A stretch of DNA of 64,000 bases, from IMG/VR virus record IMGVR_UViG_2687453341_000003, positions 1-64,000 of that record; one strand, given 5' to 3'. Below, in pieces: positions 24,176 through 41,165 of this stretch. The translations under genes were made by a program, and so were the position numbers. Within the stretch, counting starts at the first letter, position 1. Every line of letters starts with the position of its first letter. This stretch comes from a virus. Its lineage: Duplodnaviria > Caudoviricetes. A model generated the notes under the pieces. The model saw only the letters and a program-made list of their open reading frames with translations. It was not told the origin of the DNA and did not search any database.

Positions 24176-24212
24176 CGCTTGAGGTTCCTCGAAACGCATG
24201 GCTCATGTGTGT
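24176..24212 (+). promoter_or_regulatory. Cassette leader repeat 1 (GGCTTG-N14-GCATGGCTCATGTGTGT)
   Basis: Fixed 20-nt offset between the two boxes; about 60 nt upstream of the amidoligase ATG. Confidence 0.8.
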
Positions 24213-24270
24213 CATCGCGACGCAGAAAACGCGACGCAAAACACACCTCGAACCACAAAGGAACAGAACG

Positions 24271-25128
24271 ATGAACGCAAACGAACTTTCTTGGGGAATT
24301 GAATTCGAATGTACGCTTCCTAGCACCGACAACACACCGATCGGCCCCTACCACAACGGATACCAAGTACCCTGGCTGCCAACCGGATGGAAAGCAGAAC
24401 GCGACGGGAGCATCCGACCCGAGAACGCCAGCCGCAAAGGTTGCGAGTTTGTAAGCCCAATACTCAAAGGGGTTGAAGGCGTACAGCAGATCGAGAACGC
24501 GATCGACCAAATCAACGCTCGCGGGGGCCGAGTGAATTCCAGCTGCGGACTTCACGTAACTATTAGCTGGCACGGAGACGCAGCCGCCTTGGCTCGATTG
24601 ATTTCCTTGGTCGGCAACCACGAACGAGCGATCTACGCTTCGACCGGAACCCGCAAACGCGAACAGATGATGTACGCCAAGCGAATCAAACAATACGGCA
24701 ACAAAGACAACGCCAAGAGCCGATGCGAATCGGATCGCTACCACCTGCTGAACTTGACCCACCTGACCCGCGGCAAAAACCGAATCGAATTCCGAGCCTT
24801 CGGCGGAACGCTCAACAAGACCAAGGTGGTCGGATACCTGATGATGGTTTTGGGTTTGGTTGAACTCGCCCTCAATACCAAACGATGCAGCGAATGGGAT
24901 TACATCAAGAAGGAAGGAACTAAGAGTTGCTGGGATCGCCCTGGTGCCGGCCTTGGCGAAACCGAACTCAACCGATTGTTCTACCGACTCGGATGGACCA
25001 AGGGTTGGTACAAGGGTGCCCTTCGCGACAAGGTCTACGGAGAGATCGCCGGCGAAACCAAACCGGAATGGAAAACGATCAAAACCAAACTCCTCGAGCT
25101 CGCCCGCAAATACGACCACGCGGCCTAA
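24271..25128 (+). CDS. Putative amidoligase (COOH-NH2 ligase type 2 family)
   Basis: WGIEFE, ERDGSI, CEFVSPIL, NSSCGLHV, RYHLLNL and IEFR motifs. Confidence 0.85.
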   Translation: MNANELSWGIEFECTLPSTDNTPIGPYHNGYQVPWLPTGWKAERDGSIRPENASRKGCEFVSPILKGVEGVQQIENAIDQINARGGRVNSSCGLHVTISWHGDAAALARLISLVGNHERAIYASTGTRKREQMMYAKRIKQYGNKDNAKSRCESDRYHLLNLTHLTRGKNRIEFRAFGGTLNKTKVVGYLMMVLGLVELALNTKRCSEWDYIKKEGTKSCWDRPGAGLGETELNRLFYRLGWTKGWYKGALRDKVYGEIAGETKPEWKTIKTKLLELARKYDHAA

Positions 25129-25142
25129 ATCGCAACCACATA

Positions 25143-25170
25143 GAACGCCGCGAACGGAATCGCGGCGTTC
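25143..25170 (+). terminator. GC-rich hairpin after the amidoligase gene
   Basis: GAACGCCGCG-loop-CGCGGCGTTC followed by TT. Confidence 0.55.
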
Positions 25171-25324
25171 TTCCGCTTGGTCGCAACACTTGCGCACCGT
25201 CGCGTTCTTCACACCGCATGCGACCAAGTACCCAAGATCCAAACGGACGCAACACACGCGAACGTTGTGCGACACGCGGCCGGCGAGAAAGCTGCGAAAA
25301 ACATTCTGAAAACATGCCGTAAAC

Positions 25325-25361
25325 GGCTTGAGGTTAATCAAACCGCATGGCTCATTTGTGG
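25325..25361 (+). promoter_or_regulatory. Cassette leader repeat 2
   Basis: GGCTTGAGGTTAATCAAACCGCATGGCTCATTTGTGG. Confidence 0.8.
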
Positions 25362-25407
25362 CATCACGTAAACGATTCCATTCCCTTTCCCAAACGGAGA
25401 AACACAG

Positions 25408-25701
25408 ATGAACGACACGAATCAAACGAGCGCCGAACAAGCGATCCAGGACCAACTGCGACGGCTCAAATGGATGATCCCCGATGCTATGCGCCGCATG
25501 GACGAGGCGGCTCAATGCATGCTTCGTCGCGCTCAAGGTGCGGTCAAAGACACCGAGGCATTGCTGGCCGACCAACCATGCAGCATGTCCTGGGTCGATT
25601 TCGCCGAGGGCGACCTCCGCGCTGCACGCGAGGCCAAAGCGGAACTTGCAAAACTTCTCGAGCAACAAAGAATGCTCGAGTTCTTCTTGAGGAAAGACTA
25701 G
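25408..25701 (+). CDS. Small helical hypothetical protein (cassette 1 only)
   Basis: GGAGA RBS; follows a leader repeat. Confidence 0.75.
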   Translation: MNDTNQTSAEQAIQDQLRRLKWMIPDAMRRMDEAAQCMLRRAQGAVKDTEALLADQPCSMSWVDFAEGDLRAAREAKAELAKLLEQQRMLEFFLRKD

Positions 25702-25906
25702 GCCGCTGCAGAGGCAAAGACCGAACACGGAGGTTCGGTCGACGAATCGTTGGCAATATTGGGCCAACGGTTCGTCAATGTGGGCCTGTTTCGTGTATGT
25801 AACTAATAGTGGCCAACGGTCTGCAGCAATGCGAACGGCGGCATCGTGTGCGAATTGTTCGCAAAGGCAGAAACATTCAGATTTCTGCCGAGATTCTCGC
25901 AGGCTT

Positions 25907-25943
25907 GGCTTGAGCTTTCGCCAACCGCATGGCTCATGTGTGT
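25907..25943 (+). promoter_or_regulatory. Cassette leader repeat 3
   Basis: GGCTTGAGCTTTCGCCAACCGCATGGCTCATGTGTGT. Confidence 0.8.
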
Positions 25944-25989
25944 CATCGCGTAAACGATTCAAACCTTTTTCCAAAACGGAGACACAAAC

Positions 25990-26247
25990 ATGACCAACGC
26001 AAACACCCAACACGCAGCGACCGACGCAACCCTTCGCCAGATCTTCAAGGCGATGGATGCCCACCAAGCCCAAGAGATCCGCGAAGCCTACTACAAGGCG
26101 ATCGAGGGTTTGATGACCTTGGCAGAAACCCTTGAGATCGCCGACGCACAACAAACACCCTGCGCCGGCCCGCTTCTCACCGAACACTTCAACGCGGTCC
26201 AAGCCCTGGACGCGATGAAGAACAGTCGCCTTGGAAAGATCCTCTAA
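25990..26247 (+). CDS. Small hypothetical protein (homolog at 40171-40428)
   Basis: GGAGA RBS; conserved second copy. Confidence 0.85.
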   Translation: MTNANTQHAATDATLRQIFKAMDAHQAQEIREAYYKAIEGLMTLAETLEIADAQQTPCAGPLLTEHFNAVQALDAMKNSRLGKIL

Positions 26248-26452
26248 GCCACAGACCAGCGGAATGCCACGGACGCCGCGAATGGAAGCGCGGCGTTCTT
26301 CCGCTTGGTCGCGACACACGCCCACTGCCGCGTGGTGTATCCCTTCTTCGACTAAGTACCCAACAATCAAAACATCGCAACACGGGCCAACGTCGGGGCC
26401 CGTAAGGCCTCCCCTGAAACATGGAAGAACACGGGAAAAAACTGCTGAAATC

Positions 26453-26489
26453 GGCTTGCTACCGGTTAAACCGCATGGCTCATGTGTGT
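26453..26489 (+). promoter_or_regulatory. Cassette leader repeat 4
   Basis: GGCTTGCTACCGGTTAAACCGCATGGCTCATGTGTGT. Confidence 0.8.
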
Positions 26490-26538
26490 CATCGCCCAGC
26501 GACCAACTGCTTTCACCACGCAATAGGAAAACAAACCG

Positions 26539-26814
26539 ATGTCCCGAACCAATGCCAGAACCGTTGCTATCAGAACCGCCTTCAAACAAATGCCTCGCGC
26601 CACCGCGATGGACCTCTGTGAGGACTATCGCGAAGTGGTCACAAGGTTGAAACGAATGACCGACAACTTGGCCGGCGCATTCGTGGTCGCGAGTGGAGAT
26701 TCGGCCCGTGCCCTGGAAGCAGAACTCCGCATGTTCGAAGAGGCCATAGACGTCCTTGCCGGCAGCATGCTGCCCGAAGTAATCGAAGAATATCTGGCTT
26801 CCAAGGAATGCTGA
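26539..26814 (+). CDS. Small hypothetical protein (cassette 1 only)
   Basis: AGGA RBS; follows a leader repeat. Confidence 0.75.
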   Translation: MSRTNARTVAIRTAFKQMPRATAMDLCEDYREVVTRLKRMTDNLAGAFVVASGDSARALEAELRMFEEAIDVLAGSMLPEVIEEYLASKEC

Positions 26815-26842
26815 GAAAACCTGCTGAAAACATTGCAAGGAC

Positions 26843-26879
26843 GGCTTGAGGTTAATCGAACCGCATGGCTCATGTGTGT
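26843..26879 (+). promoter_or_regulatory. Cassette leader repeat 5
   Basis: GGCTTGAGGTTAATCGAACCGCATGGCTCATGTGTGT. Confidence 0.8.
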
Positions 26880-26922
26880 TATCGCATAACCAATTTTCAT
26901 TCACCCAAACGGAGAACCAAAC

Positions 26923-27195
26923 ATGAACCTCGACACCCTGATCGAAATCCTCAGCGACTACCGCGAAGAGTTCGGAGGCGACGCCGAAGTGCGACTGATG
27001 ACCCAGCAGAACTGGCCCTTCGAGAACCGGATCTGCGGCGTTACCAGCGGACGCGACATAAACGACGCGTCCGACGATGAGGATGAAGACGACGACGCCC
27101 AAGACGTTGCCGACGACTACACGGTCTACATCGTCGAAGGCGGGCAGATCTGCTACGGCAGCAAGCGGGCTTGGGAAACGTGTCGCGATAGTTGA
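26923..27195 (+). CDS. Small acidic hypothetical protein (homolog at 40459-40716)
   Basis: EVRLMTQQNWPFE motif and Asp-rich loop; GGAGA RBS. Confidence 0.85.
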   Translation: MNLDTLIEILSDYREEFGGDAEVRLMTQQNWPFENRICGVTSGRDINDASDDEDEDDDAQDVADDYTVYIVEGGQICYGSKRAWETCRDS

Positions 27196-27257
27196 CCGCG
27201 ACACATCGATGCGCCAAGGAGAAGATTCTGGAAAACCTTCAGAATCTTTTCTTCTTC

Positions 27258-27294
27258 GGCTTGCTGTCGGTTGAGCCGCATGGCTCATGTGTGT
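27258..27294 (+). promoter_or_regulatory. Cassette leader repeat 6
   Basis: GGCTTGCTGTCGGTTGAGCCGCATGGCTCATGTGTGT. Confidence 0.8.
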
Positions 27295-27339
27295 CAACGC
27301 ACTTGCGAGTTCACATCTACAAACCATAGGAGTAACACA

Positions 27340-27549
27340 ATGGCTGGTCACACACCACAACAGTACGAATCGTACAACGACAACTGGGCCGAGGTTCAAA
27401 ACCAACTGGCCTCTATCAAGGAACGGATTGACCAGTTCCCAAATCCACATTATGAGAACTTCAGTTTCTACGAGCACCAAAGCTTCACCCTGCGAGAGGT
27501 GGCACGAGCGCTCGAGGGCTTGCGCGAGTATCTCGGCATCGCCGACTAG
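27340..27549 (+). CDS. 69-aa hypothetical protein (cassette 1 only)
   Basis: AGGAG RBS precedes MAGHTPQQY. Confidence 0.75.
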   Translation: MAGHTPQQYESYNDNWAEVQNQLASIKERIDQFPNPHYENFSFYEHQSFTLREVARALEGLREYLGIAD

Positions 27550-27754
27550 TAGACCCAGCGTCAAATCAGAACCGCGGCGAATGCATGTGCCGCGTTGACT
27601 GGCTAACACAACGCGACACATCAAACGTGTCGCGTTCTTTCTTCTGCCTGCGCCCAATGATGGAACAAGAATACGAACGCGACACAAACGAACGTGGGCA
27701 AAATTGGGCGATGGGGAGAAACATGGAAAAAGACTCGGAAAAGCTGCTGGAATT

Positions 27755-27791
27755 GGCTTGATGCTGTTCAAACCGCATGGCTCATGTGTGT
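27755..27791 (+). promoter_or_regulatory. Cassette leader repeat 7
   Basis: GGCTTGATGCTGTTCAAACCGCATGGCTCATGTGTGT. Confidence 0.8.
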
Positions 27792-27837
27792 GCATACCAA
27801 ACGCGGTTTCAAACCAACCCAACACCGGAGAGACACG

Positions 27838-28086
27838 ATGCCAACCATGACCAACCGACCACGCCTGACCTCGGCCCAGTTCCTCGGAGCGCACCGGCGA
27901 GCGCTGGAAACAATCAGCGACCTGTACGCAGTGGTCGAAGAGATGCCGATCCTCGCCGCTTCCGACCCATCGACCATGAAACAGTTCTTCGACGAACTGG
28001 CTGATGTGCAGGCCACCGCAGCGAAACTCGCCCAACATTTCCGAACGCAGGTATGCACCGAAGAAAAGAATTCGAATTCCTTTTGA
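27838..28086 (+). CDS. 82-aa hypothetical protein (cassette 1 only)
   Basis: GGAGA RBS precedes MPTMTNRP. Confidence 0.7.
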   Translation: MPTMTNRPRLTSAQFLGAHRRALETISDLYAVVEEMPILAASDPSTMKQFFDELADVQATAAKLAQHFRTQVCTEEKNSNSF

Positions 28087-28090
28087 ATCC

Positions 28091-28127
28091 GGCTTGATGC
28101 GGTTCAAACCGCATGGCTCATGTGTGT
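28091..28127 (+). promoter_or_regulatory. Cassette leader repeat 8
   Basis: GGCTTGATGCGGTTCAAACCGCATGGCTCATGTGTGT. Confidence 0.8.
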
Positions 28128-28170
28128 TAACGCGAAAACGATTCACCAACCAAAAAACGGAGACCAGCAG

Positions 28171-28485
28171 ATGACCCAACACGACCTCGACCTGACGATC
28201 ACCAAGATCAGCAATCGCAACCGCGGTGCTGGCGGGTCTTGGGTGCAAGGCAAGATCAACGACGAATACCGATTCGATGCTTTGGTCTTCGCCGAACACG
28301 CAGAACACGAATCGTACGAATTGAACCAGAGCAAGATTTCGAAGCTTTGGGTTCAACGCCTGGCAGACCGCAAAGTGATGTTCAACTTCGATCGCGGGTT
28401 GGATGTGCCAGCGGTCAATACAGAGGTGCAGGTGATAGTCGACTTTCTCTGCGAGGGATTGTCGGACTTGGTCTTTGGTCAATAA
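28171..28485 (+). CDS. Conserved small phage protein (DUF7678-like; homolog at 41209-41523)
   Basis: WVQG.I...RF.ALVF, SKISKLW and FNFDRG.D motifs. Confidence 0.8.
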   Translation: MTQHDLDLTITKISNRNRGAGGSWVQGKINDEYRFDALVFAEHAEHESYELNQSKISKLWVQRLADRKVMFNFDRGLDVPAVNTEVQVIVDFLCEGLSDLVFGQ

Positions 28486-28554
28486 GCCGAAACGCAGCAC
28501 GGACGCGCGTAGTCGATCGGTGGTTCGATCGGCCTGACGATGGCAGCCAACCAC
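28486..28554 (+). ncRNA. Type II hammerhead ribozyme with loop-I pseudoknot
   Basis: GCC-GAAA, stem III, GUA cleavage triplet (28509-28511), stem I GUCGAUCG/CGAUCGGC, core CUGACGA, then U-GGC. Loop GUGGUU is complementary to downstream AACCAC. Confidence 0.88.
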
Positions 28555-28578
28555 GAACACAGATTTGGAGATACGAAG

Positions 28579-29148
28579 ATGAAGAAGGCAGAAGTAAAGA
28601 TCGGTGGCAAGTACTATGCGAACGTTTCGGGCAATCGCTGCGAGATTCGGATCGATGCCGAGAAGCCTCGGGGCGGTTGGGACGCAACCAACCTCGCGAC
28701 CGGCAAAAAGATCTTGATCAAGAGCGCCCAACGCCTGCAGGGCGAAGTGGGTGCGAAACGCGGACGCGCGAAGGTCACCACCGAAGGTAACGTAACGGTG
28801 GTTGAGAACGAACCAGCCACCGTCGAAACGATCGGAGGCGAAACGTCCACAGCGGTTGCGGTTCTCAAGAAGCCACGCAAGGCAAAGGCTGCATCCACCG
28901 AGACCGCCGACGCCGGCGAGAAGCGATTGAGCTGCGTCGCTGCGGCCTTGAAGGTTCTCAGCGAATCGAGCGAACCGATGAACGCTCAAGAGTTGATCAC
29001 CGCGATGGAAGCCAAGGGCTATTGGAGCAGCCCCGGTGGCAAGACTCCCCACGCGACCTTGTACAGCGCGATCCTTCGTGACTTGGCCAAGGGCGACGAT
29101 AGCAAGTTCGTGAAGACCGAACGCGGACGCTTCACCGTTCGAGACTAG
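28579..29148 (+). CDS. Protein with a C-terminal HARE-HTH-type winged helix
   Basis: LS...AA.KVL....EPM...ELI.......W....GKTPHATLYSAILR...RG.F motif. Confidence 0.8.
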   Translation: MKKAEVKIGGKYYANVSGNRCEIRIDAEKPRGGWDATNLATGKKILIKSAQRLQGEVGAKRGRAKVTTEGNVTVVENEPATVETIGGETSTAVAVLKKPRKAKAASTETADAGEKRLSCVAAALKVLSESSEPMNAQELITAMEAKGYWSSPGGKTPHATLYSAILRDLAKGDDSKFVKTERGRFTVRD

Positions 29149-29160
29149 GAGACCCAGCCG

Positions 29161-29394
29161 GTGAAACACTTTTACGATTTGCGAACGGTGGATGACTTGG
29201 CCGAAGGCGAGATCGCAGTGCCAGAGCCAGGCATCACCTACGACCTGCGAACGATTAACAATCGCAAGCTCGACGTCGGCAGCGTGGTGGACGTGATCCG
29301 CCAAGGTCCCACGCTGTTCGCCCGAACCGCTAGCGGAGATTCGATTGCCGTCTCCGGCCACGGCGCTGCCATCTTGGTACCGCACGACTTGTAG
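29161..29394 (+). CDS. 77-aa hypothetical protein (distant homolog of 40723-40962)
   Basis: AGGAG RBS with GTG start; shares DL..G....PE....Y and AR...G...AVSG. Confidence 0.75.
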   Translation: MKHFYDLRTVDDLAEGEIAVPEPGITYDLRTINNRKLDVGSVVDVIRQGPTLFARTASGDSIAVSGHGAAILVPHDL

Positions 29395-29571
29395 ACACGC
29401 CCGAAGCACGGAACGCTTCCCACCAATCGCCCCACGTTTACACCGTGTGGGCGTTTTCTCGTTGATGCGAACATAAGCCCAACCAGCAACACAACGCGAC
29501 ACGTCGCGGAACTGCGGTTCGCCGGCGCAGCCACATGTTTGGAAGAAATTCACAAAACATGCTCGCATGTT

Positions 29572-29608
29572 GGCTTGATGTTTTTGCGATTCGCTGGCTG
29601 ACTGTTGA
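29572..29608 (+). promoter_or_regulatory. Degenerate cassette leader repeat
   Basis: GGCTTGATG followed by a diverged GCTGGCTGACTG box. Confidence 0.45.
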
Positions 29609-29646
29609 GGATCGTCTTTCGTTTCTCCAACAACCAGGAACCAACT

Positions 29647-29862
29647 ATGGCCAAACCAGCCCTTGAGCCGGCAGCTCCCTACGAGAACCTGCACCTCGTA
29701 GCACGCGACTACCTCGATCGACTGCGTCAATCGCTCGATGCTATGCAACAACCAGATGACCCAAATCTGCGATGGCGGAAAGTTCACACGATGGCACAGG
29801 TCAACGCACGCCTGGCTCAAGCCGGCGAACTGCTCGACAAACTCAACCCAACCACCAAATGA
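29647..29862 (+). CDS. 71-aa hypothetical protein
   Basis: AGGA RBS precedes MAKPALEP. Confidence 0.7.
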   Translation: MAKPALEPAAPYENLHLVARDYLDRLRQSLDAMQQPDDPNLRWRKVHTMAQVNARLAQAGELLDKLNPTTK

Positions 29863-29874
29863 AACAAGGAACCA

Positions 29875-30105
29875 ATGACCATGCACACACGACTGAATAA
29901 AGGCGATCGCATCCGCTTGGTGTCGATGCCGCAAGATCCAGACCCGATCCCCGTTGGATCGCTCGGGACCGTCATTGATGTTCACGAGCATCACGATTGG
30001 ATGCAGGTCGATGTCGATTGGGACAACGGCCGCTCCCTCATGCTGACGATGCCCGACGATTGTGTCGCCATCGTCGAACCCAACCACCACGAACCATCGA
30101 AGTAA
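29875..30105 (+). CDS. DUF4314-family protein
   Basis: GDRIRLVSM..DPDPIP.G..GTV and V.WDNGRSL.L motifs. Confidence 0.8.
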   Translation: MTMHTRLNKGDRIRLVSMPQDPDPIPVGSLGTVIDVHEHHDWMQVDVDWDNGRSLMLTMPDDCVAIVEPNHHEPSK

Positions 30106-30117
30106 GGAAGCCAACCT

Positions 30118-30435
30118 ATGTCCACAAGAGCAACGATTGCCTGCAAGCAAGAAGACGGTCGCTACGCAGCGATCTACCTTCACTTCGATGGCTACCAAGA
30201 CCACGCCGGCAGAGTCCTCAAAGAACATTACACATCGATCGAGTCGGCACGAACGCTGGTCGCAGGTGGCGATATTCGATCGCTCGCTAACGACGGAACG
30301 CCCGAACGATTCACCGACGGTAATCGCACGGTTGTCATGCCGACGCGCGCGGCTCTCCACGAGTTCGCGAGGAACTGCGGCACCGAGTATGTTTACGTTT
30401 TCGAGGACGACGCTTGGCATTGTCATAGGCTTTGA
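30118..30435 (+). CDS. Conserved phage protein with an MSTR...Y.H.DGY motif
   Basis: MSTRATI, IYLHFDGY and EYVYVF..W motifs; AAGGA RBS. Confidence 0.8.
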   Translation: MSTRATIACKQEDGRYAAIYLHFDGYQDHAGRVLKEHYTSIESARTLVAGGDIRSLANDGTPERFTDGNRTVVMPTRAALHEFARNCGTEYVYVFEDDAWHCHRL

Positions 30436-30441
30436 TGGGCT

Positions 30442-30864
30442 TTACTGATTCGATGAGTTTTGTTTTGCACGAAGTTTCCGATTGCGTTTCGCGATGACGG
30501 CGAGGTCCGATAGACAGCGCTTGCACACCCCCATCACACCGTTGCGTCCCTTGTATTCGTAGAACTCCGTGTCGACGGGCCGATACCATTGGCAGCGCCG
30601 ACAGCGTTTCAACCAGCGGCTGCCAACTCGGATGCAACCGCTGTGAATCCGCTTGTGCTCCAAGCGAGTCACCAGCATGAGGTTCTCAAGTCGGTTATCG
30701 AGCTTGTCACCGTTGCGATGGTGTAGCTCCATGCCTTCAGGGATAGGCCCATGGTGCGTCTCCCAGACGATTACATGCTCAAACCTTTGCTTCCGATCCT
30801 TGCACGTGATCCGTCGATAGCCGAACGGCGTGATTGAACCTCTGGCCGGTGACCGTTGCGTCAT
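30442..30864 (-). CDS. HNH endonuclease with a C-terminal Zn-binding CxxC pair
   Basis: EHVIVWE.HHGPIP, HHRNGDKLDNRLENL and EH...H motifs. Confidence 0.9.
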   Translation of the reverse strand: MTQRSPARGSITPFGYRRITCKDRKQRFEHVIVWETHHGPIPEGMELHHRNGDKLDNRLENLMLVTRLEHKRIHSGCIRVGSRWLKRCRRCQWYRPVDTEFYEYKGRNGVMGVCKRCLSDLAVIAKRNRKLRAKQNSSNQ

Positions 30865-31833
30865 CGCATGTTCTCCTCTCGCGCCTTCATGGGGATCGGA
30901 GATTCGCCCGTTCGTTCCAAGACCGCAGGGATACCTGTGAAACGCTGGAAGCGATCAACGATGACATCACAATACAGCGTGTCGAGTTCCATCAAGAACG
31001 CGTTGCGACCGCACTGCTCAGCGCCGATCAGCGTTGAGCCACTGCCACCGAACAGGTCGAGGACGTTCTCGCCTTGAACCGACGAATACTGCATCGCGCG
31101 GACAGCGAGTTCAGCCGGCTTGCCCGTTAAATGTTCAAGCTGTTGCGGAGGGATCTTCTTGACATGCCAAAGGTCCGTGATGTTCTTCGGTCCATAGAAC
31201 TTATGGCCGGCACCTTCTTTCCAGCCATAGAACGCCCATTCATGCGCGCCCATGAAATCTTTTCGCGTCAAAACTGGATGCTGCTTGTCCCAGATGATTG
31301 ATTGCGAGAAGTACAGCCCATGCTTCTTCAGTACCGGTGGATAGTTGCCGCAGTTGGCGTAGCCACCCCAGATGTAGAAGCAGCGACCTGGCAGTAAGAC
31401 TCGGGCAATGTTTCCAAACCAATCATCAAGCAGCTTGTCGAACGCCTCGTCGCTGACGAAGTCATTTGCAAGCGGTCGATCCTTTGGACGAAGCTTCTTG
31501 TGAGTCGCTGCATGTTTTGGTTTGCCCGTTTCGTGATCGACACCAAACGAAGCGGCGTTGCCTTGTCCTTGCTTCAGCCGGCCCGATGCCCCATCGTTCG
31601 AGAACGAAGACAAACCCGCAGCGATCGCGTTATTCGATCGCGGTTCGACCTTTACGTTGTAGGGCGGATCTGTGTTGCACAAGTGGATCGCAGCGCCGGC
31701 CAAGAGCCGATCTAAGTCCGCCGGCGACGACGAGTCACCACAGAGTAGCCGATGGTTTCCGAGGATCCAAAGATCGCCTGGTTGGGTAACCGCTTCGTCT
31801 GGCGGCTCCGGCACATCGTCTGGATCGGTGAGC
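30861..31833 (-). pseudogene. 5'-truncated DNA methyltransferase (N6A/N4C, beta class) that lacks the ParB domain
   Basis: DPPY and DLFGGSGST are intact. Alignment to 42775-44166 ends at LTDPD; an unrelated N-terminus continues in frame to 31970. Confidence 0.8.
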
Positions 31834-32274
31834 TTCCAGGCAACCCACTGATTCCGATCGCGAATGCAACTTGGACAATTCTGGTCGATAGCTTCAAGAG
31901 GCGGTTGGGGTGCGGAACCTCCCCGGACCGACCCTGATAAGGAACCTTCTCGGAGAAGTCGATTTCGCAACTGCTTGAAAAACGAGGGCTTACGGAGTTC
32001 GAGACCGAATCGCTCGGTCGTAAAAGGTGTGCCGCGTTACGGAAAATCTGCTTAACAGTCAGGACTTTCGCTGCGCGCGTTTTTAGTCATTTTAGCTTTC
32101 CGCGACCTGCACATAAGTTCTTGTTTGAACAGTCGTTAACCGCTTTCGGGTTACATCGGTGCCCCGCATCGGTCTCGAACGCATGCGACATACTACTTAG
32201 CAATCACTGCGAACCGGCTGCACCGCCATGAAGCAGTTGTTACATGCAGCCGTCGAACTATCCTAGACCCACAT

Positions 32275-33654
32275 CCGGGGTGCAAAAAGTGCGCTCCGCC
32301 TATGTATTTCTCGGGAATTCACGGCTTTTCATCATGGCAAGCTTCCGCAACGTTTACACATCCCTCTTGCTCGTCATTGCCGGGTCAACGGACAGGGAAC
32401 TTGCCCGCCAGGTCAACTACCTCAAGGCGGAGAACCAAATCCTTCGCAGTCGGCTTCCTGGTCGGATCAGTCTAACTGAACGCGAGAAGAACCGCCTGAT
32501 TCGTTTTGCCAAAAATCTTGGTTCGGCACTCAATGAGTTGGCCACGATTGTTCACCCCGGGACCATCCATCGCTGGATTCGCGAAGCCGCAGCAAAATCC
32601 AAGGCGCGCCGAAAAGGCAAAAGCGGCCGTCCCCGGACTGCAAAGGATATCGAGAAACTGATCCTTAAACTGGCCAAAGACAATTCCTGGGGCTACACCA
32701 GGATCCTCGGCGAACTAAAGAAACTTGGGATCGAATCGGTAACGCGCAACACGGTCAAAAACATTCTCAAACGCAATGGCTTCGAGTCAGGCCCTAAGCG
32801 AGGACCGGGCACTTGGGACGAGTTCGTCAATCGCCATGCGAAAACGCTTTGGCAATGCGACTTCTTCTCGAAGAAGATCGTTTCGAAGGCTGGCCTTCGA
32901 GACATCTTTGTTTTGATCTTTATCAACGTTGAAACACGTCGCGTCTACATTTCGCCGTCGACCTACAAGCCAGATGAGCAATGGATGGTTCAGCAAGCGA
33001 CAACGTTTATCGAGTCGACAAAGGCGGGAGGTCCGAAATGCAAGATCCTGATGCTCGACAACGACGCAAAGTACTCCAAGCTGTTCATGGACGTATTTGA
33101 AAAGGGAAAAATCAAAATCCAACGAACTCCGATCCGATCCCCGAACATGGTCGCCTTTGCCGAACGATTCGTTCAAACGATCAAGCAAGAATGTCTCGAC
33201 CATTTCGTCGTTTTTGGCCACAAACACATGGACCTCCTGTGCCAAGAATTCAAAGACTACTATCACGAAGAACGGCCGCATCAGGGACTGGAGAACGAGC
33301 TTGTGATTGACGGTACGAGAACGAAGAAACGATCGAAGTCTGGAACGACACAATCCGAAGCCGTATCGATTCCGATTTCTGAGATTCGTTGCAAAGAACG
33401 GCTCGGTGGACTGCTCAAGAGCTATAGCCGCAGAGCGGCGTAGCTCAAGTCATCGTTCCACTTCCTTTGATACGTTCACTTCAGGTTTGTGCTTACTGCT
33501 GCGCACGACGCGAACATCCATCTGCACCGCAGCCATCTGTGTCCAAAAATGATCAATGTGCTATCTCAAACGTGATTCCAACTGCTCTCGATCCCTTACC
33601 TATTTCGTTCGGAAAATCACCTTGCTCGATGCAATCTAGTTTTTGCACAGGGCG
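32275..33654 (+). mobile_element. Insertion sequence encoding an rve-type DDE integrase/transposase
   Basis: Short inverted termini GTGCAAAAA (32280-32288) and TTTTTGCAC (33640-33648). The right end coincides with the portal breakpoint. Confidence 0.65.
32334..33443 (+). CDS. Integrase core domain (DDE) transposase
   Basis: N.SWGY.RI.GEL, WQCDFF (D), DNDAKY (D), AERFV.TIK.ECLD (E), Y.EERPHQG and RLGGLL motifs. Confidence 0.92.
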   Translation: MASFRNVYTSLLLVIAGSTDRELARQVNYLKAENQILRSRLPGRISLTEREKNRLIRFAKNLGSALNELATIVHPGTIHRWIREAAAKSKARRKGKSGRPRTAKDIEKLILKLAKDNSWGYTRILGELKKLGIESVTRNTVKNILKRNGFESGPKRGPGTWDEFVNRHAKTLWQCDFFSKKIVSKAGLRDIFVLIFINVETRRVYISPSTYKPDEQWMVQQATTFIESTKAGGPKCKILMLDNDAKYSKLFMDVFEKGKIKIQRTPIRSPNMVAFAERFVQTIKQECLDHFVVFGHKHMDLLCQEFKDYYHEERPHQGLENELVIDGTRTKKRSKSGTTQSEAVSIPISEIRCKERLGGLLKSYSRRAA

Positions 33655-34974
33655 CAGAGTGGTCGTATGATTGGCGAGGCGGATTTTCTGGGCATTGGCT
33701 TCTTTGGCTGGGTCGACATGCTCATGTCCGTCCCAAAACCATTGATGCTCGAACGACGAGTCGAGAGTGCGAAGCGAGTTAGGCAGATAGCCTTCGATGA
33801 GAACCGCTTCGCGCAGCCATGCGTACAGAATGCGATCCAGAATGGTGCGAGCCATTTGAGACTGCTCGACACGGATCGACTTGAAGTAGGTTTGATGGTC
33901 GAGTCGCCCAGATGCGTAGTTGTAGCCCGACGAATTTCCAGCGGCGACATTGAACGGCATGTTCAAACAACGTGCGATTTCGTTGAGAATCTCACGCTTG
34001 AACTCGGCGTACGTGGTCGCCGGTTGCTCAGCGTGCATCTGAGCCATCTTCCAACCGCCAGGCATCGTTAGGAGCGCTCGCTTCTCCAGTTCGATCGGCT
34101 CGAACGGTTCCGCGGCGTCGGCTTCGCCACCTGCGGGCGCGTCGGTGTAGAGAATCCCGGCAAAGTCAGCTGCTGTTTCTGCGGCAGCAAGCACTGCTAG
34201 AGTGAATCGACGAAGTTGTGCGAAGAGTGGCAGCGCTGGCGTAATGTCAGGAATACCACGAATCTGCCCTGGCCGATCACTGCGAAAATAGTGAAGGACC
34301 GAACTGGCGTCGATCGTGTCATAGTTCTCTGTCAATGAGAATGCGTCATCACCTGGATGTTCTCGGAGCACATCGTATGAAATCGGATTGCCATGCTCAT
34401 CAAAGCGGATGCCATCGAGATAGCGATAGCTGTCAAAGGCCAAGAGAGGCGAACTAACCTGTTCGGCCTCGACCAGCTTTAGATCAAGTTGAACCGGCGA
34501 ATCAATTCTCGGGTTACTGGTTAGCAAACCAAACGATTCACCGTCTGAAACGCGAGCAAGCCGCATCGTGCGTAGTTTCTCTGCGAGGCCAACTGCATCA
34601 GCCCAAGCAAAGAACTCCTGTTCAACAAAACGGTTGGCAAACGCATCCGCAGTCAGCATCTGCAATCGAGGTCCGGTACCAACACAGTCGTTGGCCAGAG
34701 TCAGCGAGATACCGCGAGCATAAGAATTGTTAGCGATCTCGTATCGCGAACGGTTGCGTAGCGTGCGACGCACTTCAGGGCTATTGGCCGCACTGGCCGA
34801 TAGTCCGTCAGCGGCTGCCCAGTGGCGAACGTTGTCGACCGTGGTGGTCGCAGCGTCATAGCGTCCCAGCAGTCTCATCATCGACCAGGGGTGTCGGGTC
34901 GAGCGTCCACGGACGAGCGATCGATCAACTCGATCACCGTTCTTGCTCAACATCCTTGATAACAACTTCAACAT
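33553..34974 (-). pseudogene. Lambda-family portal, C-terminally truncated at the IS end
   Basis: Matches 19666-21150 up to LANHTTTL (about 33655), then reads into IS sequence. Confidence 0.85.
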
Positions 34975-35045
34975 CCGTGAATCAATCCCTACTGTGAAAC
35001 CCGACACCCCTGCCAATAGAAACAAGCTCGATCAGGTGCGAACGA

Positions 35046-35288: not shown

Positions 35289-35318
35289 TTGAACTACTCA
35301 CGAAACATGCAAACTGGC
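35289..35318 (-). promoter_or_regulatory. Bipartite motif GCCAGTT-N11-TGAGTAGTTCAA upstream of the head genes
   Basis: One of four copies with identical spacing. Confidence 0.7.
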
Positions 35319-35418
35319 GAAAGCGACGGACAGAATTTGGGAAATAGTTTGATTCACAGCCTACATGACGTGAACGAGAGCCATGACTGTGGGACTTAGC
35401 GCGGTGAATGCCGCTAGA

Positions 35419-35916: not shown

Positions 35917-36206
35917 CGACTTTCGACCTGCTTGCGATAGCTCTCCATGGCAAGCTTCAACTTCTTGTTTGGCTTCTTGGGTGCAAGAAGTGCCTCGACC
36001 AGAATTTTGCTTTGCGCTTGGTCCAAGTGCACCTTCTCATGCTCATCGATCACTTTCTTTGCAGCGACTTCAACATGAGCGAGTACAAATTCAGAAACAG
36101 TCCGACCACTGAATGCGGCAGCCCGCTCGATTAGATCTTTCTGCTCTTGAGACACTCGAGTCTCGATTCGAGCCGACTTTGAGGTACCGTTCACAGTTGC
36201 CATCAC
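35913..36206 (-). CDS. DUF1778 ribbon-helix-helix antitoxin (AtaR/TacA-like)
   Basis: RIETRVS.EQK.LIERAA...GRTVSEFV and P.KPN.KL motifs; ATGA overlap with the toxin. Confidence 0.9.
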   Translation of the reverse strand: MMATVNGTSKSARIETRVSQEQKDLIERAAAFSGRTVSEFVLAHVEVAAKKVIDEHEKVHLDQAQSKILVEALLAPKKPNKKLKLAMESYRKQVESR

Positions 36207-36291
36207 TTGCTCCTTGATTCACTACTACTGTACGGCATATTTCCGTACAAGTCAATTTGAATGGGTTTCGCTTCCAAAGCGAGAAACCACA

Positions 36292-38559
36292 TCAAACCCG
36301 TCGTCGCCCCTGCATTTCCTTGAAACTCAGTCGATTTCGCTTCTCGGGAACATCTCGATCGGTACCAAAGAGCACAACGCCTTGCATGGATGCCGCAACG
36401 GCAGTGCCTACCAAACAGTCGAACCAGTGGTTGTCGGGCTGCTCGGGTCGCTGCTTCCATTCGTCAACTGATCGGCCACGCCCTTCCGTTTTGATGAAAT
36501 ATTCGGACGTGAGATGCTCGGAGAGCATACGGTGGGTTTCGGCGTTGCTACCAAAAAGCGATAAGCAGCCGCGATCGCCCATGGAGACTCGCATTCGAGC
36601 GTTGATGAATGATTTCCACCAGTTGGTGTCATAGAGCACGTGTCGGATGGCGCGCTTGCCATTTACGTTGGGCACGCGCCAGTTGAGACCGACCCGGTCT
36701 CCGGGCCGACGTCGATACTCGCTGAACGGTTGACTTGAAGCACCTACGAATCTCCCGTGGCTCGGCATGATCACGGCGGCATGTTTGGATTGCCGGCAGA
36801 ACTGATAGACCACATCAGTCGATTGGCCCCAGTTGGCGTCGATCAAGCAGCGACCGATTCGCATTGCAGCCCCATCGTCTCGTTGCCACTCGCGATCGAG
36901 TAGATTGGATGTCAGCGATTCAAGGCCGGCGTAGATCGATCCCTCGAGCCCAGTTCCCATTGCCTCGGAACTCAACGTTTGCCGAGCTTCCCGTAATGTG
37001 AAGTACGGACGCTGCTGATCGGGATAGCAACCGTAGTCAATGATATAGCCTGTGAAATCATCCTCCCAGGCAGCGACTACATAGAAGAGCAATTTCTGCT
37101 GGACGTCGATGAATGCGGTGAGGTGGTTTGCTCCGATGGAAACCAAGCCGCGATCCAAGCGGTTGATCTTGCTTGCAACCTCTGCGGGTTTGAGCATCCC
37201 ATCGCTAACCGTCTCGGCTGGCAGCGGTTGGTTCTGGTATTCAGCGAAGAACGCAGCTTCATCCTGAAGCTTGAGGTTCATAGCATGCTGGATTGCCGAA
37301 AGTTCATCGTAGTTAAATCGCTCCTGCCAAGCGACAACAGCGCCGTCATCCATAGCCGCTTGGTTCTGACGATAGAATTCGGTGGCTGCTTCACCACCAT
37401 CACCACCTCGCATCCCTTCCGCGCGGATCTCGGCATAGCGTTCCCAAAGTGTTTCGTTCTTTGGGAAGGAGTAAACCATCTTGGTTCGTTCGCCATTCCA
37501 TTCGGGATGTCGATTGCGATCGAGGATATTGTCGGCCATATCACCAGGGCGAATCACCGTGCAGGGCATGATGCCTGAGATCTTCTTCCCCGGGCCAGCC
37601 AAACCGAGCACTGCACCGGCAAGAATGCTTTCGCGATTTGCACATTGCGAAAGCGAACGCGCACTCTCATCGGTTTGCGGGTCATCGAGCACCACGAGGC
37701 TTGGACGGACCGTTCGACCATCGGGGCGCTTGAACTTCATTCCACGGATACGACCGGTTAGGCCAGCGACCTTGATAATCGCTCCGCTGGCACTGCTACC
37801 TTCGATGGTTGGCAGCACAACCTCTTTGGCGGTCCATCCGATCTGCGTGCGTTTGCCTTTATAGAGCTGACCATTCGCGCGATTTGAGATTCCATCGAGG
37901 GCTTGGATGGGAAAACAAACCTCGGGGAAGTCGGCTAAAAGCAGCTCGTTGCTGTCGAGTTCGGTTTTGATCGAATCGAGCATGTCGCAGGCGTGGCCTT
38001 CGTCGCTACCGATCAGACAGACGAAGTTCCGATGTCCGTAGAGCACTGCCCAGATGCAAGCGACTTCTGCGATCGACGATTTTCCACTGCCACGTGCCAT
38101 CGCCAAGGCAAACAATCCCCCATGGACAACAGCTTGCTCAATTTTGTTGATGACCTTGATATGGTCCGGAGACCATGCGAGATGAAACGTGAGCGGAAAG
38201 TAGGTCTCGCAAAAGTATCGGAAGTCTCGCGATGCGCGATCTTTCCGATCGGGATTGTCTACCACCGGAAGTTCACCGATATCTCGGCCGGCTAGCGCGA
38301 GCGCTGCGTTGCGTGCTCGAGCTCGCTCCTTCATCGCTTCGTACGAATCGACCCCTGAGTTTTGTTTGGGAGTATGGCGTACGACGTGCATCCAGGCGCA
38401 GTAGCGAAGGAGGTCGACCGTCTTGTTGTCACCGATACGGGCGCCGGCGCGTTGCCGATGACGATACAACTGCCGCTCGCTGATCACCTCGCCTAGCGGC
38501 GTTGAGTTGAGCAGCCGGCATAGCTCACTTGGCTTTAGTTTTCGAGGATCACTCGCCAC
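36292..38559 (-). CDS. Terminase large subunit (copy 2)
   Basis: Same motifs as 21531-23801, with many synonymous differences. Confidence 0.92.
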   Translation of the reverse strand: MASDPRKLKPSELCRLLNSTPLGEVISERQLYRHRQRAGARIGDNKTVDLLRYCAWMHVVRHTPKQNSGVDSYEAMKERARARNAALALAGRDIGELPVVDNPDRKDRASRDFRYFCETYFPLTFHLAWSPDHIKVINKIEQAVVHGGLFALAMARGSGKSSIAEVACIWAVLYGHRNFVCLIGSDEGHACDMLDSIKTELDSNELLLADFPEVCFPIQALDGISNRANGQLYKGKRTQIGWTAKEVVLPTIEGSSASGAIIKVAGLTGRIRGMKFKRPDGRTVRPSLVVLDDPQTDESARSLSQCANRESILAGAVLGLAGPGKKISGIMPCTVIRPGDMADNILDRNRHPEWNGERTKMVYSFPKNETLWERYAEIRAEGMRGGDGGEAATEFYRQNQAAMDDGAVVAWQERFNYDELSAIQHAMNLKLQDEAAFFAEYQNQPLPAETVSDGMLKPAEVASKINRLDRGLVSIGANHLTAFIDVQQKLLFYVVAAWEDDFTGYIIDYGCYPDQQRPYFTLREARQTLSSEAMGTGLEGSIYAGLESLTSNLLDREWQRDDGAAMRIGRCLIDANWGQSTDVVYQFCRQSKHAAVIMPSHGRFVGASSQPFSEYRRRPGDRVGLNWRVPNVNGKRAIRHVLYDTNWWKSFINARMRVSMGDRGCLSLFGSNAETHRMLSEHLTSEYFIKTEGRGRSVDEWKQRPEQPDNHWFDCLVGTAVAASMQGVVLFGTDRDVPEKRNRLSFKEMQGRRRV

Positions 38560-38755
38560 GGCCCATCTCCTTTGCTTGCCAAGCGCTATAGTTCACGAGG
38601 TTGATCGTGCCATCGGCGTTCGCGGGCGCACCTTCATGGAGATCGCTTCGGATCTTCTCGGCATCGATCCGTTCTCGGTAGGCAGCGGACAGAAGTTTCG
38701 CGGCTTGTTCGATCGAGAGTCTCGTCGGATCGACCGGCTGTTTGTCTTCACTCAT
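38549..38755 (-). CDS. Small pre-terminase protein (copy 2)
   Basis: Homolog of 23791-23997. Confidence 0.75.
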   Translation of the reverse strand: MSEDKQPVDPTRLSIEQAAKLLSAAYRERIDAEKIRSDLHEGAPANADGTINLVNYSAWQAKEMGRGE

Positions 38756-38934
38756 CGCATTCCTCCGTGACTTGGTAGTTCAAAACGTGGGGCCACTGTT
38801 TGCGCCGTGTCGCGTTTCCCCATCCACTTCGCCTGGTTATGCGAAGCATGTTTGAACGCGACGGTGGCGTAATGTTGGGGCACCGGTGGCTTCTCGAAGA
38901 ACATGCGAAATTGCTGGAAAAACATGATGCAATT

Positions 38935-38972
38935 CGCTGGATGATTCCTCTCCCGCAAGGCTTCATGTGTGT
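38935..38972 (+). promoter_or_regulatory. Variant cassette leader repeat with a 1-nt insertion
   Basis: CGCTGG-N14-GCAAGGCTTCATGTGTGT. Confidence 0.65.
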
Positions 38973-39030
38973 TGTCGCGACGCGAAGAACGCGACGAAAC
39001 ACAAACCTTGCACCCCAGAGGAACATCACC

Positions 39031-39888
39031 ATGAACGCAAACGAAATTTTCTTTGGTCTGGAATTTGAGACGACGCTTCCGAACAGTGACACCACACCAA
39101 TCGGCCCCTACCACAACGGATACCAAGTCCCTTGGTTGCCAAACGGATGGAAAGCGGAACGCGATGGTAGCATCCGCCCTGAGAGCCCATGCCGCAAAGG
39201 ATGCGAGTTCGTAAGCCCCAAGCTGAAAGGTTACGATGGCCTCAAGGAAATCGAGGAAGCGATCGACCAAATCAACGCTCGTGGGGGACGAGTCAATTCG
39301 AGCTGTGGTCTCCATCTTTCGATAGATTGGCGTGGCGACGCAGCGGCACTCGCACGACTGATCTCCCTGGTTGGCAACCACGAGAAAGCGATTTTCGCGA
39401 GTACTGGGACTCGCCGCCGCGAACAAACGATCTACACCAAGCAGATCAAGCAATACGGCGACAAAGACGCTGCGAAGAATCGATGTGAAGCGGATCGCTA
39501 CCACCTGCTGAACCTTACCCACCTCGCTGCCGGTAGAAACCGTATCGAATTTCGGGCTTTCGCAGGAACTCTCAACAAGACCAAGGTGGTCGGATACCTG
39601 ATGATGGTTTTGGGATTGGTAGAGCTGGCCCTGAACACCAAACGCTGCAGCGATTGGGACTACATCAAGAAGGAAGGAACCAAAAGCTGCTGGGATAGAC
39701 CAGGCGCCGGCCTTGGGGAAACGGAGATCAACCGATTGTTCTACCGCCTCGGTTGGACCAAGGGTTGGTACAAGGGCGCTCTTCGCGACAAGGTTTACGG
39801 GGAGATCACAGGGGAAACCAAACCGGATTGGAAGGCGATCAAGACCAAGCTGATCGAGCTTGCCCGCAAGTACGACCGCGCGGCCTAG
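39031..39888 (+). CDS. Putative amidoligase (copy 2)
   Basis: FGLEFE, CEFVSP, NSSCGLH and IEFR motifs. Confidence 0.85.
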   Translation: MNANEIFFGLEFETTLPNSDTTPIGPYHNGYQVPWLPNGWKAERDGSIRPESPCRKGCEFVSPKLKGYDGLKEIEEAIDQINARGGRVNSSCGLHLSIDWRGDAAALARLISLVGNHEKAIFASTGTRRREQTIYTKQIKQYGDKDAAKNRCEADRYHLLNLTHLAAGRNRIEFRAFAGTLNKTKVVGYLMMVLGLVELALNTKRCSDWDYIKKEGTKSCWDRPGAGLGETEINRLFYRLGWTKGWYKGALRDKVYGEITGETKPDWKAIKTKLIELARKYDRAA

Positions 39889-39902
39889 GACTAATCCAGA
39901 CG

Positions 39903-39931
39903 AAACGCCGGGAAAACAATCCCGGCGTTTT
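39903..39931 (+). terminator. Hairpin terminator, potentially bidirectional
   Basis: AAACGCCGGGA-loop-TCCCGGCGTTTT. Confidence 0.6.
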
Positions 39932-39954
39932 GACGTTTTCTGGCCCACCATTTC

Positions 39955-39984
39955 GCCAGTATGGCGTCGGCTTGAGTAGTTCAA
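39955..39984 (+). promoter_or_regulatory. Bipartite motif GCCAGTA-N11-TGAGTAGTTCAA
   Basis: Same spacing as the three other copies. Confidence 0.65.
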
Positions 39985-40087
39985 AGATAGTGGGCAATCG
40001 TCTTCGGCGTCGTCGCATATCGCGTTTTGTGCGACATGTCGCAGATCAGAGAAACCTGTGAGATTTGCCATTAATCCTCGCATGTTC

Positions 40088-40124
40088 GGCTTGAGGTTAT
40101 CTAAACCGCATGGCTCCATGGTGT
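40088..40124 (+). promoter_or_regulatory. Cassette leader repeat (cassette 2)
   Basis: GGCTTGAGGTTATCTAAACCGCATGGCTCCATGGTGT. Confidence 0.75.
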
Positions 40125-40170
40125 CATCGCGTAAGCGATTCGAAACCGAGTTCCCAACGGAGACACAAAC

Positions 40171-40428
40171 ATGACCAACGCAAGCAACCCACACGCAGCG
40201 ACCGACGCGACCCTTCGCCAAATCTTCAAGGCGATGGACGCCCACCAAGCCCAAGAGATCCGCGAAGCCTACTACAAGGCGATCGAGGGACTGATGACCT
40301 TGGCTGAAACCCTCGAAGTCGCCGACGCACAACAAACCCCCAGCGCCGGCCCGCTTCTCACCGAACACTTCCACGCGGTCCAAGCGTTGGACGCCATGAA
40401 GAACAGCCGCCTCGGCAAGATCCTCTAA
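40171..40428 (+). CDS. Small hypothetical protein (homolog of 25990-26247)
   Basis: Near-identical protein. Confidence 0.85.
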   Translation: MTNASNPHAATDATLRQIFKAMDAHQAQEIREAYYKAIEGLMTLAETLEVADAQQTPSAGPLLTEHFHAVQALDAMKNSRLGKIL

Positions 40429-40458
40429 ACCCAAGAACATAACGAAGGAGAAATCAAC

Positions 40459-40716
40459 ATGAAGCTCGACACCTTGATCGAAATCCTGAACGACTACCGC
40501 GAAGAGTTCGGAGGCGACGCGGAAGTGCGATTGATGACCCAGCAAAATTGGCCCTTTGAGAACCGTATCTGCGGTGTAACGAGCGGGCGCGACATGAACG
40601 AATCGGATGAGGACGATGACCAAGATGTCGCTGACGACCAAACGGTCTACATCGTCGAAGGGGGGCAAATCTGCTACGGCAGCAAGAGGGCTTGGGAAAA
40701 CTACAAGGATAGCTGA
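40459..40716 (+). CDS. Small acidic protein (homolog of 26923-27195)
   Basis: AAGGAG RBS; near-identical protein. Confidence 0.85.
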   Translation: MKLDTLIEILNDYREEFGGDAEVRLMTQQNWPFENRICGVTSGRDMNESDEDDDQDVADDQTVYIVEGGQICYGSKRAWENYKDS

Positions 40717-40722
40717 ACGCAA

Positions 40723-40962
40723 ATGTATATCGGACAACTTCATTTGGTAACCGACCTCGAAGACGGAGATCGGGCCTATCCAGAGGCGAACGTCTCGTAC
40801 GAAATCGAATCGATTGACGACTCTTCGCTCAATACGACCGTCGCGTATGTCGAGCGACGAGGGAATCGGCTGATTGCAAGAGGATACAACGGACGGGATT
40901 ACGCCGTCTCGGGCGTCGATGGTTACGAACTTTACGCGGTTCGAAAGCCGCCACAGCGATGA
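40723..40962 (+). CDS. 79-aa hypothetical protein (distant homolog of 29161-29394)
   Basis: Shared motifs; directly follows the previous stop codon. Confidence 0.75.
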   Translation: MYIGQLHLVTDLEDGDRAYPEANVSYEIESIDDSSLNTTVAYVERRGNRLIARGYNGRDYAVSGVDGYELYAVRKPPQR

Positions 40963-41128
40963 TGATTGCCCGCTTCGCGACATCGCCCCACGTTTGCGAC
41001 GTGAGGGCGTTCTTTTCTCGATTGGCGTCATTTCCCCCAGATGCAATGCGATGCGACTGTGGCCAAACGGTTGCGACTGTGGGGCTCGGAAACATTCTTC
41101 AAAAAAGCATCGAACTACTTTTTGAATT

Positions 41129-41165
41129 GCCTTGCTGTTTATCAAAGTGCATGGCTCATGTGTGT
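41129..41165 (+). promoter_or_regulatory. Cassette leader repeat (cassette 2)
   Basis: GCCTTG-N14-GCATGGCTCATGTGTGT. Confidence 0.8.

Follow-up and report, generated by a model that had tools for sequence, protein, structure and literature searches.

The first 64,000 nucleotides (nt) of IMG/VR virus record IMGVR_UViG_2687453341_000003, hereafter called the window, contain two paralogous prophage segments with 75-87% nucleotide identity. The presence of terminase, portal, capsid and tape-measure genes identifies a double-stranded DNA (dsDNA) prophage, not a single-gene RNA virus genome, and its type is lambda/HK97-like. Each segment carries an array of small sense genes (arrays A and B, Table 1), which is the sole + strand block and is flanked on both sides by minus-strand genes. 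These sense genes are under purifying selection (ratio of nonsynonymous to synonymous substitution, dN/dS, 0.03-0.4). Four of them match the Pfam families Amidoligase_2, DUF7678, HARE-HTH and DUF4314, and the majority of array genes are preceded by a leader repeat and a GGAG-like ribosome-binding site. A single long open reading frame (ORF) lies antisense to each array (ORF A and ORF B), and these two frames, together with the leader repeats that fall within them, are the subject of this report.

All 21 sense gene starts of arrays A and B lie in one frame (position%3=1). The antisense ORFs are therefore in codon register with the genes they overlap, and a sense codon TTA, CTA or TCA reads as a stop on the antisense strand. 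When these triplets were counted by + strand frame, array A gave 64, 1 (the terminal stop) and 82, and array B gave 39, 1 and 40, with none located inside either ORF. Both of the remaining antisense frames consist of 3-4% stops.

The sense genes of the four related arrays in this genome (A through D) contain TTA, CTA or TCA at 3 of 4455 codons, versus 55-83 expected from synonymous usage for leucine and serine, and the three occurrences are situated at the margin of the open stretch or outside it. These codons account for 1.58% of all codons genome-wide (1796 long ORFs) and for 2.37% in the remaining prophage genes. For array A, codon usage predicts approximately 23-34 stops, to which spacers would add approximately 22. 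In homologous cassettes not covered by a long open stretch, the three codons occur at a rate of 8.3 per 1000. Untranslated spacers carry 0 stops in the open frame versus 276 and 242 in the other two over 28.9 kilobases (kb), a count that is conditioned on open stretches.

Two simpler causes of this codon avoidance were considered and ruled out. Array sense genes have a GC fraction at third codon positions (GC3) of 0.68 versus 0.62, their fraction of A-ending codons is 0.183 versus 0.165-0.182, and GTA, ATA, CCA, ACA and GCA are used at normal rates. General composition bias was rejected as a cause because three codons are singled out and the other frames are full of stops. A lack of suitable tRNAs was rejected because the host has tRNAs for TTA, CTA and TCA. 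The rule used to find genes (a Shine-Dalgarno-like motif plus an ORF) also returned out-of-register ORFs, two each in arrays A, B and C and three in array D, which overlap in-register genes or fall outside the arrays.

Table 1. Features of the two prophage segments, with positions in the window
Feature	Position	Strand	Remarks
Antisense ORF A	24136..30426	-	2096 amino acids (aa); shares codon register with all + strand genes of array A
Antisense ORF B	38752..42762	-	1336 aa; over paralogous array B
Array A, 13 small sense genes	24271..30435	+	all starts at position%3=1; Pfam
Array B, 8 sense genes	39031..42771	+	all starts at position%3=1; 75-87% nucleotide identity to array A
Array A leaders, 8 copies	24196..28122	+	starts 24196, 25345, 25927, 26473, 26863, 27278, 27775, 28111
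Array B leaders, 3 copies	38955..41160	+	38955 (GGCTTCATG variant), 40108 (GGCTCCATG variant), 41149 (exact)
Amidoligase_2 gene, array A	24271-25128	+	Pfam
DUF7678 gene, array A	28171-28485	+	Pfam
HARE-HTH gene, array A	28579-29148	+	Pfam
DUF4314 gene, array A	29875-30105	+	Pfam
Type II hammerhead ribozyme, array A	28485..28552	+	Rfam RF02276, 39.6 bits
Type II hammerhead ribozyme, second copy, array B	41523-41590	+	Rfam RF02276, 50.8 bits
HNH endonuclease	30442-30864	-	upstream of ORF A on minus strand
DNA methylase	30861-31970	-	upstream of ORF A on minus strand
ParB-N/DNA methylase of copy B	42775-44166	-	upstream of ORF B
68-aa gene	23791-23997	-	downstream of ORF A on minus strand
gpA-type large terminase	21531-23855	-	downstream of ORF A on minus strand
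ATGA junction, ORF B stop / 68-aa gene start of copy B	38752..38755	-	overlap

Past the array, the minus-strand order is the 68-aa gene, the gpA-type large terminase, the portal, a protease/capsid fusion and the tape measure. Because the 68-aa protein matched no family in Pfam or PHROGs, the gene is not named here as a small terminase. GC-rich inverted repeats (GGGGCCACCG ... GGGGCACCGGTGGCC) occur at 23995-24190 and 38753-38950, in the interval from the amidoligase leader to the 68-aa gene. Given that HNH and terminase genes adjoin these intervals, they may hold the packaging (cos) site, and with a cos site there, one end of the virion DNA would be formed by the array. A transposase gene of insertion sequence (IS) type (rve_3, HTH_32) is located at 32244-33443 (+), between the truncated structural module of copy B, whose portal gene occupies 33553-35025, and the methylase of copy A. 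The insertion sequence forms the junction of the two prophage copies.

Both hammerhead ribozymes exceed the RF02276 gathering score of 37, cover model positions 1-66 of 66 and are situated between the DUF7678 and HARE-HTH genes. Among related loci, 11 of 12 hold a ribozyme. HARE-HTH lacks its own leader, and for this reason self-cleavage may serve to release it from a bicistronic RNA.

Antisense frames in related arrays and viral contigs

In each of the four arrays of this genome the amidoligase gene comes first, and the antisense frames are open for 2101, 1340, 1375 and 1561 codons. The arrays differ from one another with a synonymous divergence (pS) of 0.27-0.8. A survey of the family recovered the amidoligase from 24 of 201 genomes, in 19 of 126 genera. 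Twenty-five loci from other genomes of the family, with 69-95% identity, were compared, and in 16 of these the in-register frame stays open over 3000 nt or more. When the antisense strand of each array was traversed by a greedy walk, 11 arrays required 0.2-0.8 open segments per kb and the other 17 required 1.2-2.8. The corresponding values for ordinary prophage genes, used as controls, are 5.4-7.7 per kb on the antisense strand and 1.4 per kb on the coding strand.

Viral contigs were represented by 29 loci from IMG/VR that each hold two or more exact leader copies; some of these contigs may be close kin of this genome. Every leader falls within one open stretch of 4284-7200 nt in all seven loci that have at least six leaders, and the longest open stretch lacks any leader in 8 of the 29. 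ORF A is matched by eight giant 'hypothetical proteins' of 1306-2308 aa.

Co-framing of the genes, loss of TTA, CTA and TCA, stop-free spacers, and conservation in paralogous arrays, in other genera and in viral contigs all argue for selection on the antisense frame. We are highly confident that antisense openness is under selection.

Several further loci were recorded during this comparison. One genome (G024) has three arrays, of which one is open. On contig C11 of genome G077, two arrays (L065 and L073) face each other with their terminase sides approximately 26 kb apart, a spacing that requires at least one of these prophages to be truncated. Outside the window, a 1254-codon open frame at G000:C1:5516704-5520468 (+) is strongly T-rich on its own strand (AT skew -0.24), as are the antisense ORFs. 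Its opposite strand has no leader copies and, by the gene-finding rule, no co-framed small genes.

Leader repeats and their phase

The leader was traced through its 12-mer GCATGGCTCATG, which occurs on the + strand in eight exact copies (the array A leaders other than 25345, and 41149) and in one copy with a single mismatch (25345). Allowing up to two mismatches gave 17 matches versus 7.4 expected. Two variants carry an extra base, GCAAGGCTTCATG at 38955 and GCATGGCTCCATG at 40108. Each array A leader lies 60-75 nt ahead of a start codon, and successive leaders there are spaced by 1149, 582, 546, 390, 415, 497 and 336 nt, five of these seven intervals being multiples of 3. The full leader consensus comprises GCTTGA, 14 nt and CATGGCTCATGTGTGT, and its final 15 positions hardly vary among 116 distinct contexts. 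The nearly invariant 15-nt core, CATGGCTCATGTGTG, recurs across 19 genera (window positions 24140-28122 and related loci), and in a phylum-wide sample of 400 other genomes, 6 held the 15-mer. The leader does not match a sigma-70 promoter, and no promoter-like sites (TTGACA/TATAAT with 16-18 nt spacing) were found in 23500-32200. The leader could be a site for a phage-specific transcription factor or polymerase.

The leader contains TCA, which reads as the stop TGA on the minus strand. Depending on phase, the leader is read antisense as THEPCG, as HMSHA, or as a stop-Ala-Met restart, in which the antisense sequence TGA GCC ATG supplies a stop, one codon and a start. The initial annotation had observed that leader repeats never sit in the stop-forming frame and proposed this as an internal test for selection on the antisense frame. 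The positions and phases it reported were confirmed: nine copies read GCA TGG CTC (start at position%3=1), the copy at 27278 reads CGC ATG GCT CAT, and the variant at 38955 reads CAA GGC TTC ATG. As a test within the window, however, it is circular. All 11 copies are inside the antisense ORFs, so none could hold an in-frame stop, and the absence of such stops is not an independent observation. Even at face value, the chance of 11 copies avoiding the stop phase is (2/3)^11 = 0.012. The bias of leaders toward one phase does exceed chance, as does the open frame itself.

The extra base at 38955 had also been interpreted as an insertion that rescues the frame by removing a stop. This was a misreading, because the TCA of this copy lies 68 nt ahead of the amidoligase ATG (38963 to 39031), exactly as in the copy at 24196 (24203 to 24271), and thus occupies the same harmless phase. 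For a ribosome reading the antisense strand, the extra T falls beyond the TCA. The GGCTTCATG variant is common to arrays B, C and D and to one related locus (L052).

The frame of leaders was also tabulated in relatives, as the initial annotation had suggested. Among 32 loci there are 121 leader copies at no more than one mismatch, of which 115 could be assigned to a downstream cassette gene. The leader-to-ATG distance modulo 3 is 0 in 75 copies, 2 in 26 and 1, the phase that places TCA in frame, in 14. The share of about one third that had been named as counting against selection was therefore not seen. Collapsing at 80% identity leaves 54 clusters split 33:14:7, for which the probability of at most 7 under a one-third expectation is 6e-4. 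Distinct leader-to-ATG length classes number 8, 6 and 5 per phase (kin are not independent), and 37 of the 115 copies share a 60-nt distance. The stop phase is thus depleted in relatives but not absent, and the word 'never' is false outside this genome. A stop-phase leader forms the 3' end of the antisense ORF in L069, L070 and L072 and its 5' boundary in L058, L060, L066, L069, L070, L072 and L073. The remaining stop-phase leaders belong to arrays with a broken frame. Because the leader TCA is invariant, phasing is the only way to accommodate it, and the leader phasing noted in the initial annotation is read as one symptom of the open antisense frame. The broader conclusion of the initial annotation, that the antisense frame is selected, is strongly supported by the evidence from codons, spacers and relatives given above, but not by the leader-phase test on which it was based.

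Proposed read-through of the array and other explanations

The antisense frames are positioned like members of the minus-strand gene series. The HNH stop lies in the frame of ORF A, whose ATG follows 15 nt later. Likewise, the stop of the ParB-N/methylase gene lies in the frame of ORF B, whose GTG follows 12 nt later, and in array D the methylase gene ends in an ATGA that also supplies the start codon of the ORF. At the other end, the stop of the ORF overlaps the ATG of the 68-aa gene (ATGA) in arrays B, C and D and in loci L052, L053 and L056, with TGATG as the equivalent in L055. In arrays A through D, the open frame runs from the stop of the upstream gene to within 0-141 nt of the next gene. 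The flanking order is maintained across 32 loci, with terminase found upstream in 25 of 32 and methylase found downstream in 31 of 32. Translation and transcription are coupled in bacterial operons, which are subject to Rho polarity, and an ATGA stop/start overlap couples the translation of adjacent genes. The host encodes Rho.

Based on these features, we propose that the leaders are conserved promoter/5'-leader modules of an array of small early genes, and that selection keeps stops out of one antisense frame over the full length of the array. It takes the cheapest route to this outcome, holding all sense genes in one frame and avoiding TTA, CTA and TCA, with spacers, terminators, the hammerhead ribozyme and the leaders likewise kept stop-free and in phase. 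A minus-strand transcript extending from the methylase/HNH genes to the terminase and head genes would, we infer, cross 4-6 kb of antisense DNA. Antisense translation, often coupled at both ends by stop/start overlap, would then protect this RNA from Rho-dependent termination or decay. We hold with moderate confidence that the best overall explanation is selected openness with read-through as its likely purpose. Taken by itself, read-through of the minus-strand transcript as the purpose of openness is slightly less likely than not. Somewhat more tentative is the general formulation that a family of temperate dsDNA phages keeps a multi-gene 'ambigram', in which probably anti-defence early cassettes would be opposed by a complementary 4-7 kb frame translated solely to escort the late transcript past a block of reversed genes, its product being irrelevant. 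The invariant leader would then be tolerable to an antisense reader in each of its three phases.

A number of observations weigh against read-through. In-register stops occur near the array start in 9 of the 25 related loci with no change in flanking gene order. Arrays B and D adjoin truncated structural modules yet are fully open, whereas the arrays of L061 and L063 are broken though portal, capsid and partial tape-measure matches are kept, and by this comparison openness seems to be independent of apparent prophage intactness. The ORF ends 140-235 nt short of the next gene in array A, L050, L051 and a second group of loci, and the antisense start codons mostly have no clear Shine-Dalgarno sequence. 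The + strand of the arrays holds slightly more C than G (GC skew -0.01 to -0.07). By this measure the antisense RNA is not C-rich, and it should therefore be a mediocre Rho substrate. No late promoter was located, and the RNA data at the locus are assembled metatranscriptome contigs, which give neither strand nor ends nor levels and so do not bear on antisense transcription. Mixed metagenome contigs with 85% likeness showed small insertions and deletions (indels) inside the ORF in nearby compensating sets and in-array joints that are multiples of 3 in three of the four with known net length, and these data were given no weight.

The length of the ORFs, the proximity of their start codons to the upstream gene and the listing of their relatives as proteins by gene callers would all be expected if the antisense ORFs were true overlapping genes encoding giant proteins of meaningful sequence. 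Several findings make this very improbable. Neither ORF A nor ORF B matches a Pfam family, and the 'protein' changes from array to array along with the cassette content. Spacer substitutions are flat over the three phases in nine array pairs (for example 0.156/0.171/0.171 and 0.185/0.190/0.204), with no excess at wobble positions. Double synonyms are not enriched: glutamine CAA/CAG, synonymous on both strands, differs at 0.396 of conserved sites versus 0.342 for glutamate and 0.402 for lysine, and the doubly synonymous G<->T change in proline codons accounts for 0.083 of differences versus 0.046-0.088 in four control families. Sense synonymous sites are near saturation (pS ~0.5), which rewrites antisense first codon positions. 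Spacer indels in clean close pairs measure 15, 60 and 105 nt; gap-length counts in distant pairs are dominated by alignment ambiguity, and close pairs alone are clean. The spacer-periodicity and double-synonym tests thus revealed no purifying selection on the antisense amino-acid sequence, and we conclude that openness rather than a protein is selected. Even less credible is the absence of any antisense selection, by which open frames and leader phasing would arise from base composition, from codon bias and from the common ancestry of leader-gene modules that were duplicated. Where TTA, CTA and TCA are rare (1.6% of codons here), the longest shadow frame is usually the in-register antisense one, the sense strand is T-poor (AT skew +0.2), the 60-nt leader-to-ATG distance is inherited, and the leader length classes are nearly even among phases. 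Against this stand the stops that fill the other two antisense frames, avoidance that is limited to three codons and does not extend to A-ending codons at large, the use of those codons by homologous cassettes outside long open stretches, and persistence of the frame at the high synonymous divergence just noted. In addition, all genes are co-framed and the spacers are free of stops in that one frame, with the conditioning already described.

Openness might also be selected, and the antisense strand translated, for a purpose other than the late transcript. Ribosome cover could prevent pairing of the antisense RNA with abundant early mRNAs, and thus the formation of double-stranded RNA and its exposure to nucleases or sensors, or it could stabilize the RNA or help to shut off early genes. 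This possibility shares the same basis, namely frame-specific stop avoidance with no protein constraint, and the arrays that remain open beside truncated structural modules fit a role not tied to head genes. It also draws on narnaviruses, for which PMC8316113 reports that translation of the reverse ORF is required for persistence and proposes that ribosomes protect the RNA. However, the stop/start overlaps with flanking minus-strand genes better fit an ORF internal to an operon, and none of the present results bear on double-stranded RNA or its sensing. We therefore consider shielding unlikely, although far less so than either a giant protein or a by-product of composition, and we continue to favor selected openness with read-through.

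Comparison with known systems

If selected openness with read-through is correct, codon choice, gene phase and spacer length over a dozen phage genes would be shaped by a frame with an irrelevant product, and the non-coding strand would constrain how the genes of a whole module are ordered and framed and how long its spacers are. Translation would serve as a device for transcript protection in a bacterial virus, and the ambigram idea would extend from tiny RNA viruses to bacterial viruses. Such an arrangement suggests a route by which phages could hold reversed modules inside long operons without antitermination factors. Gene callers record these antisense frames as giant hypothetical proteins, and as a consequence real small genes may be mis-annotated. 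A search of full-text literature, which did not cover subscription journals or supplements, returned no DNA phage with a stop-free, in-register antisense frame that spans several genes. To our knowledge, there is also no known translated spacer of thousands of codons with a seemingly irrelevant product.

The arrays resemble cases of operon coupling in their short or overlapping junctions with neighbouring minus-strand genes and in the presence of Rho in the host. A likeness also exists to shadow ORFs, or pseudo-ambigrams, which are described in PMC13262655 and bioRxiv 10.1101/724807 as in-register antisense frames that lengthen when TTA, CTA and TCA are rare. Unlike shadow ORFs, the frames reported here come with no overall bias in GC3 or in A-ending codons; the depletion falls on three codons, and the open frame also takes in non-coding spacers. 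Bacterial antisense overlapping genes, such as those of Pseudomonas aeruginosa (PMC8850804) and asa of enterohaemorrhagic Escherichia coli (EHEC; PMC6294744), are similar in being long ORFs antisense to annotated genes, often in register. Such ORFs are reported to lie within one gene and to reach no more than approximately 1.5 kb, and purifying selection on their protein products has been argued. In contrast, the present ORFs extend over 4-6 kb, cover many genes and spacers, and exhibit no protein-level constraint.

The closest parallel is provided by the ambigrammatic narnaviruses (the reverse ORF of Culex narnavirus 1 and its relatives; PMC8316113, PMC8155312). By analogy the arrays would work alike, without being a member of that group. 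A narnavirus likewise is reported to keep the complementary frame stop-free and in codon register across nearly the whole unit by avoiding certain forward codons, and the double-synonym count made here gives the same kind of answer as in those reports. Unlike narnaviruses, the array resides in a bacterial double-stranded DNA prophage, and its antisense ORF sits inside a minus-strand operon with overlapping stop/start junctions. Furthermore, the frame spans 8-13 genes along with promoters/leaders, terminator-like hairpins and a ribozyme, and it therefore needs co-framing of all genes and spacers constrained to triplet lengths.

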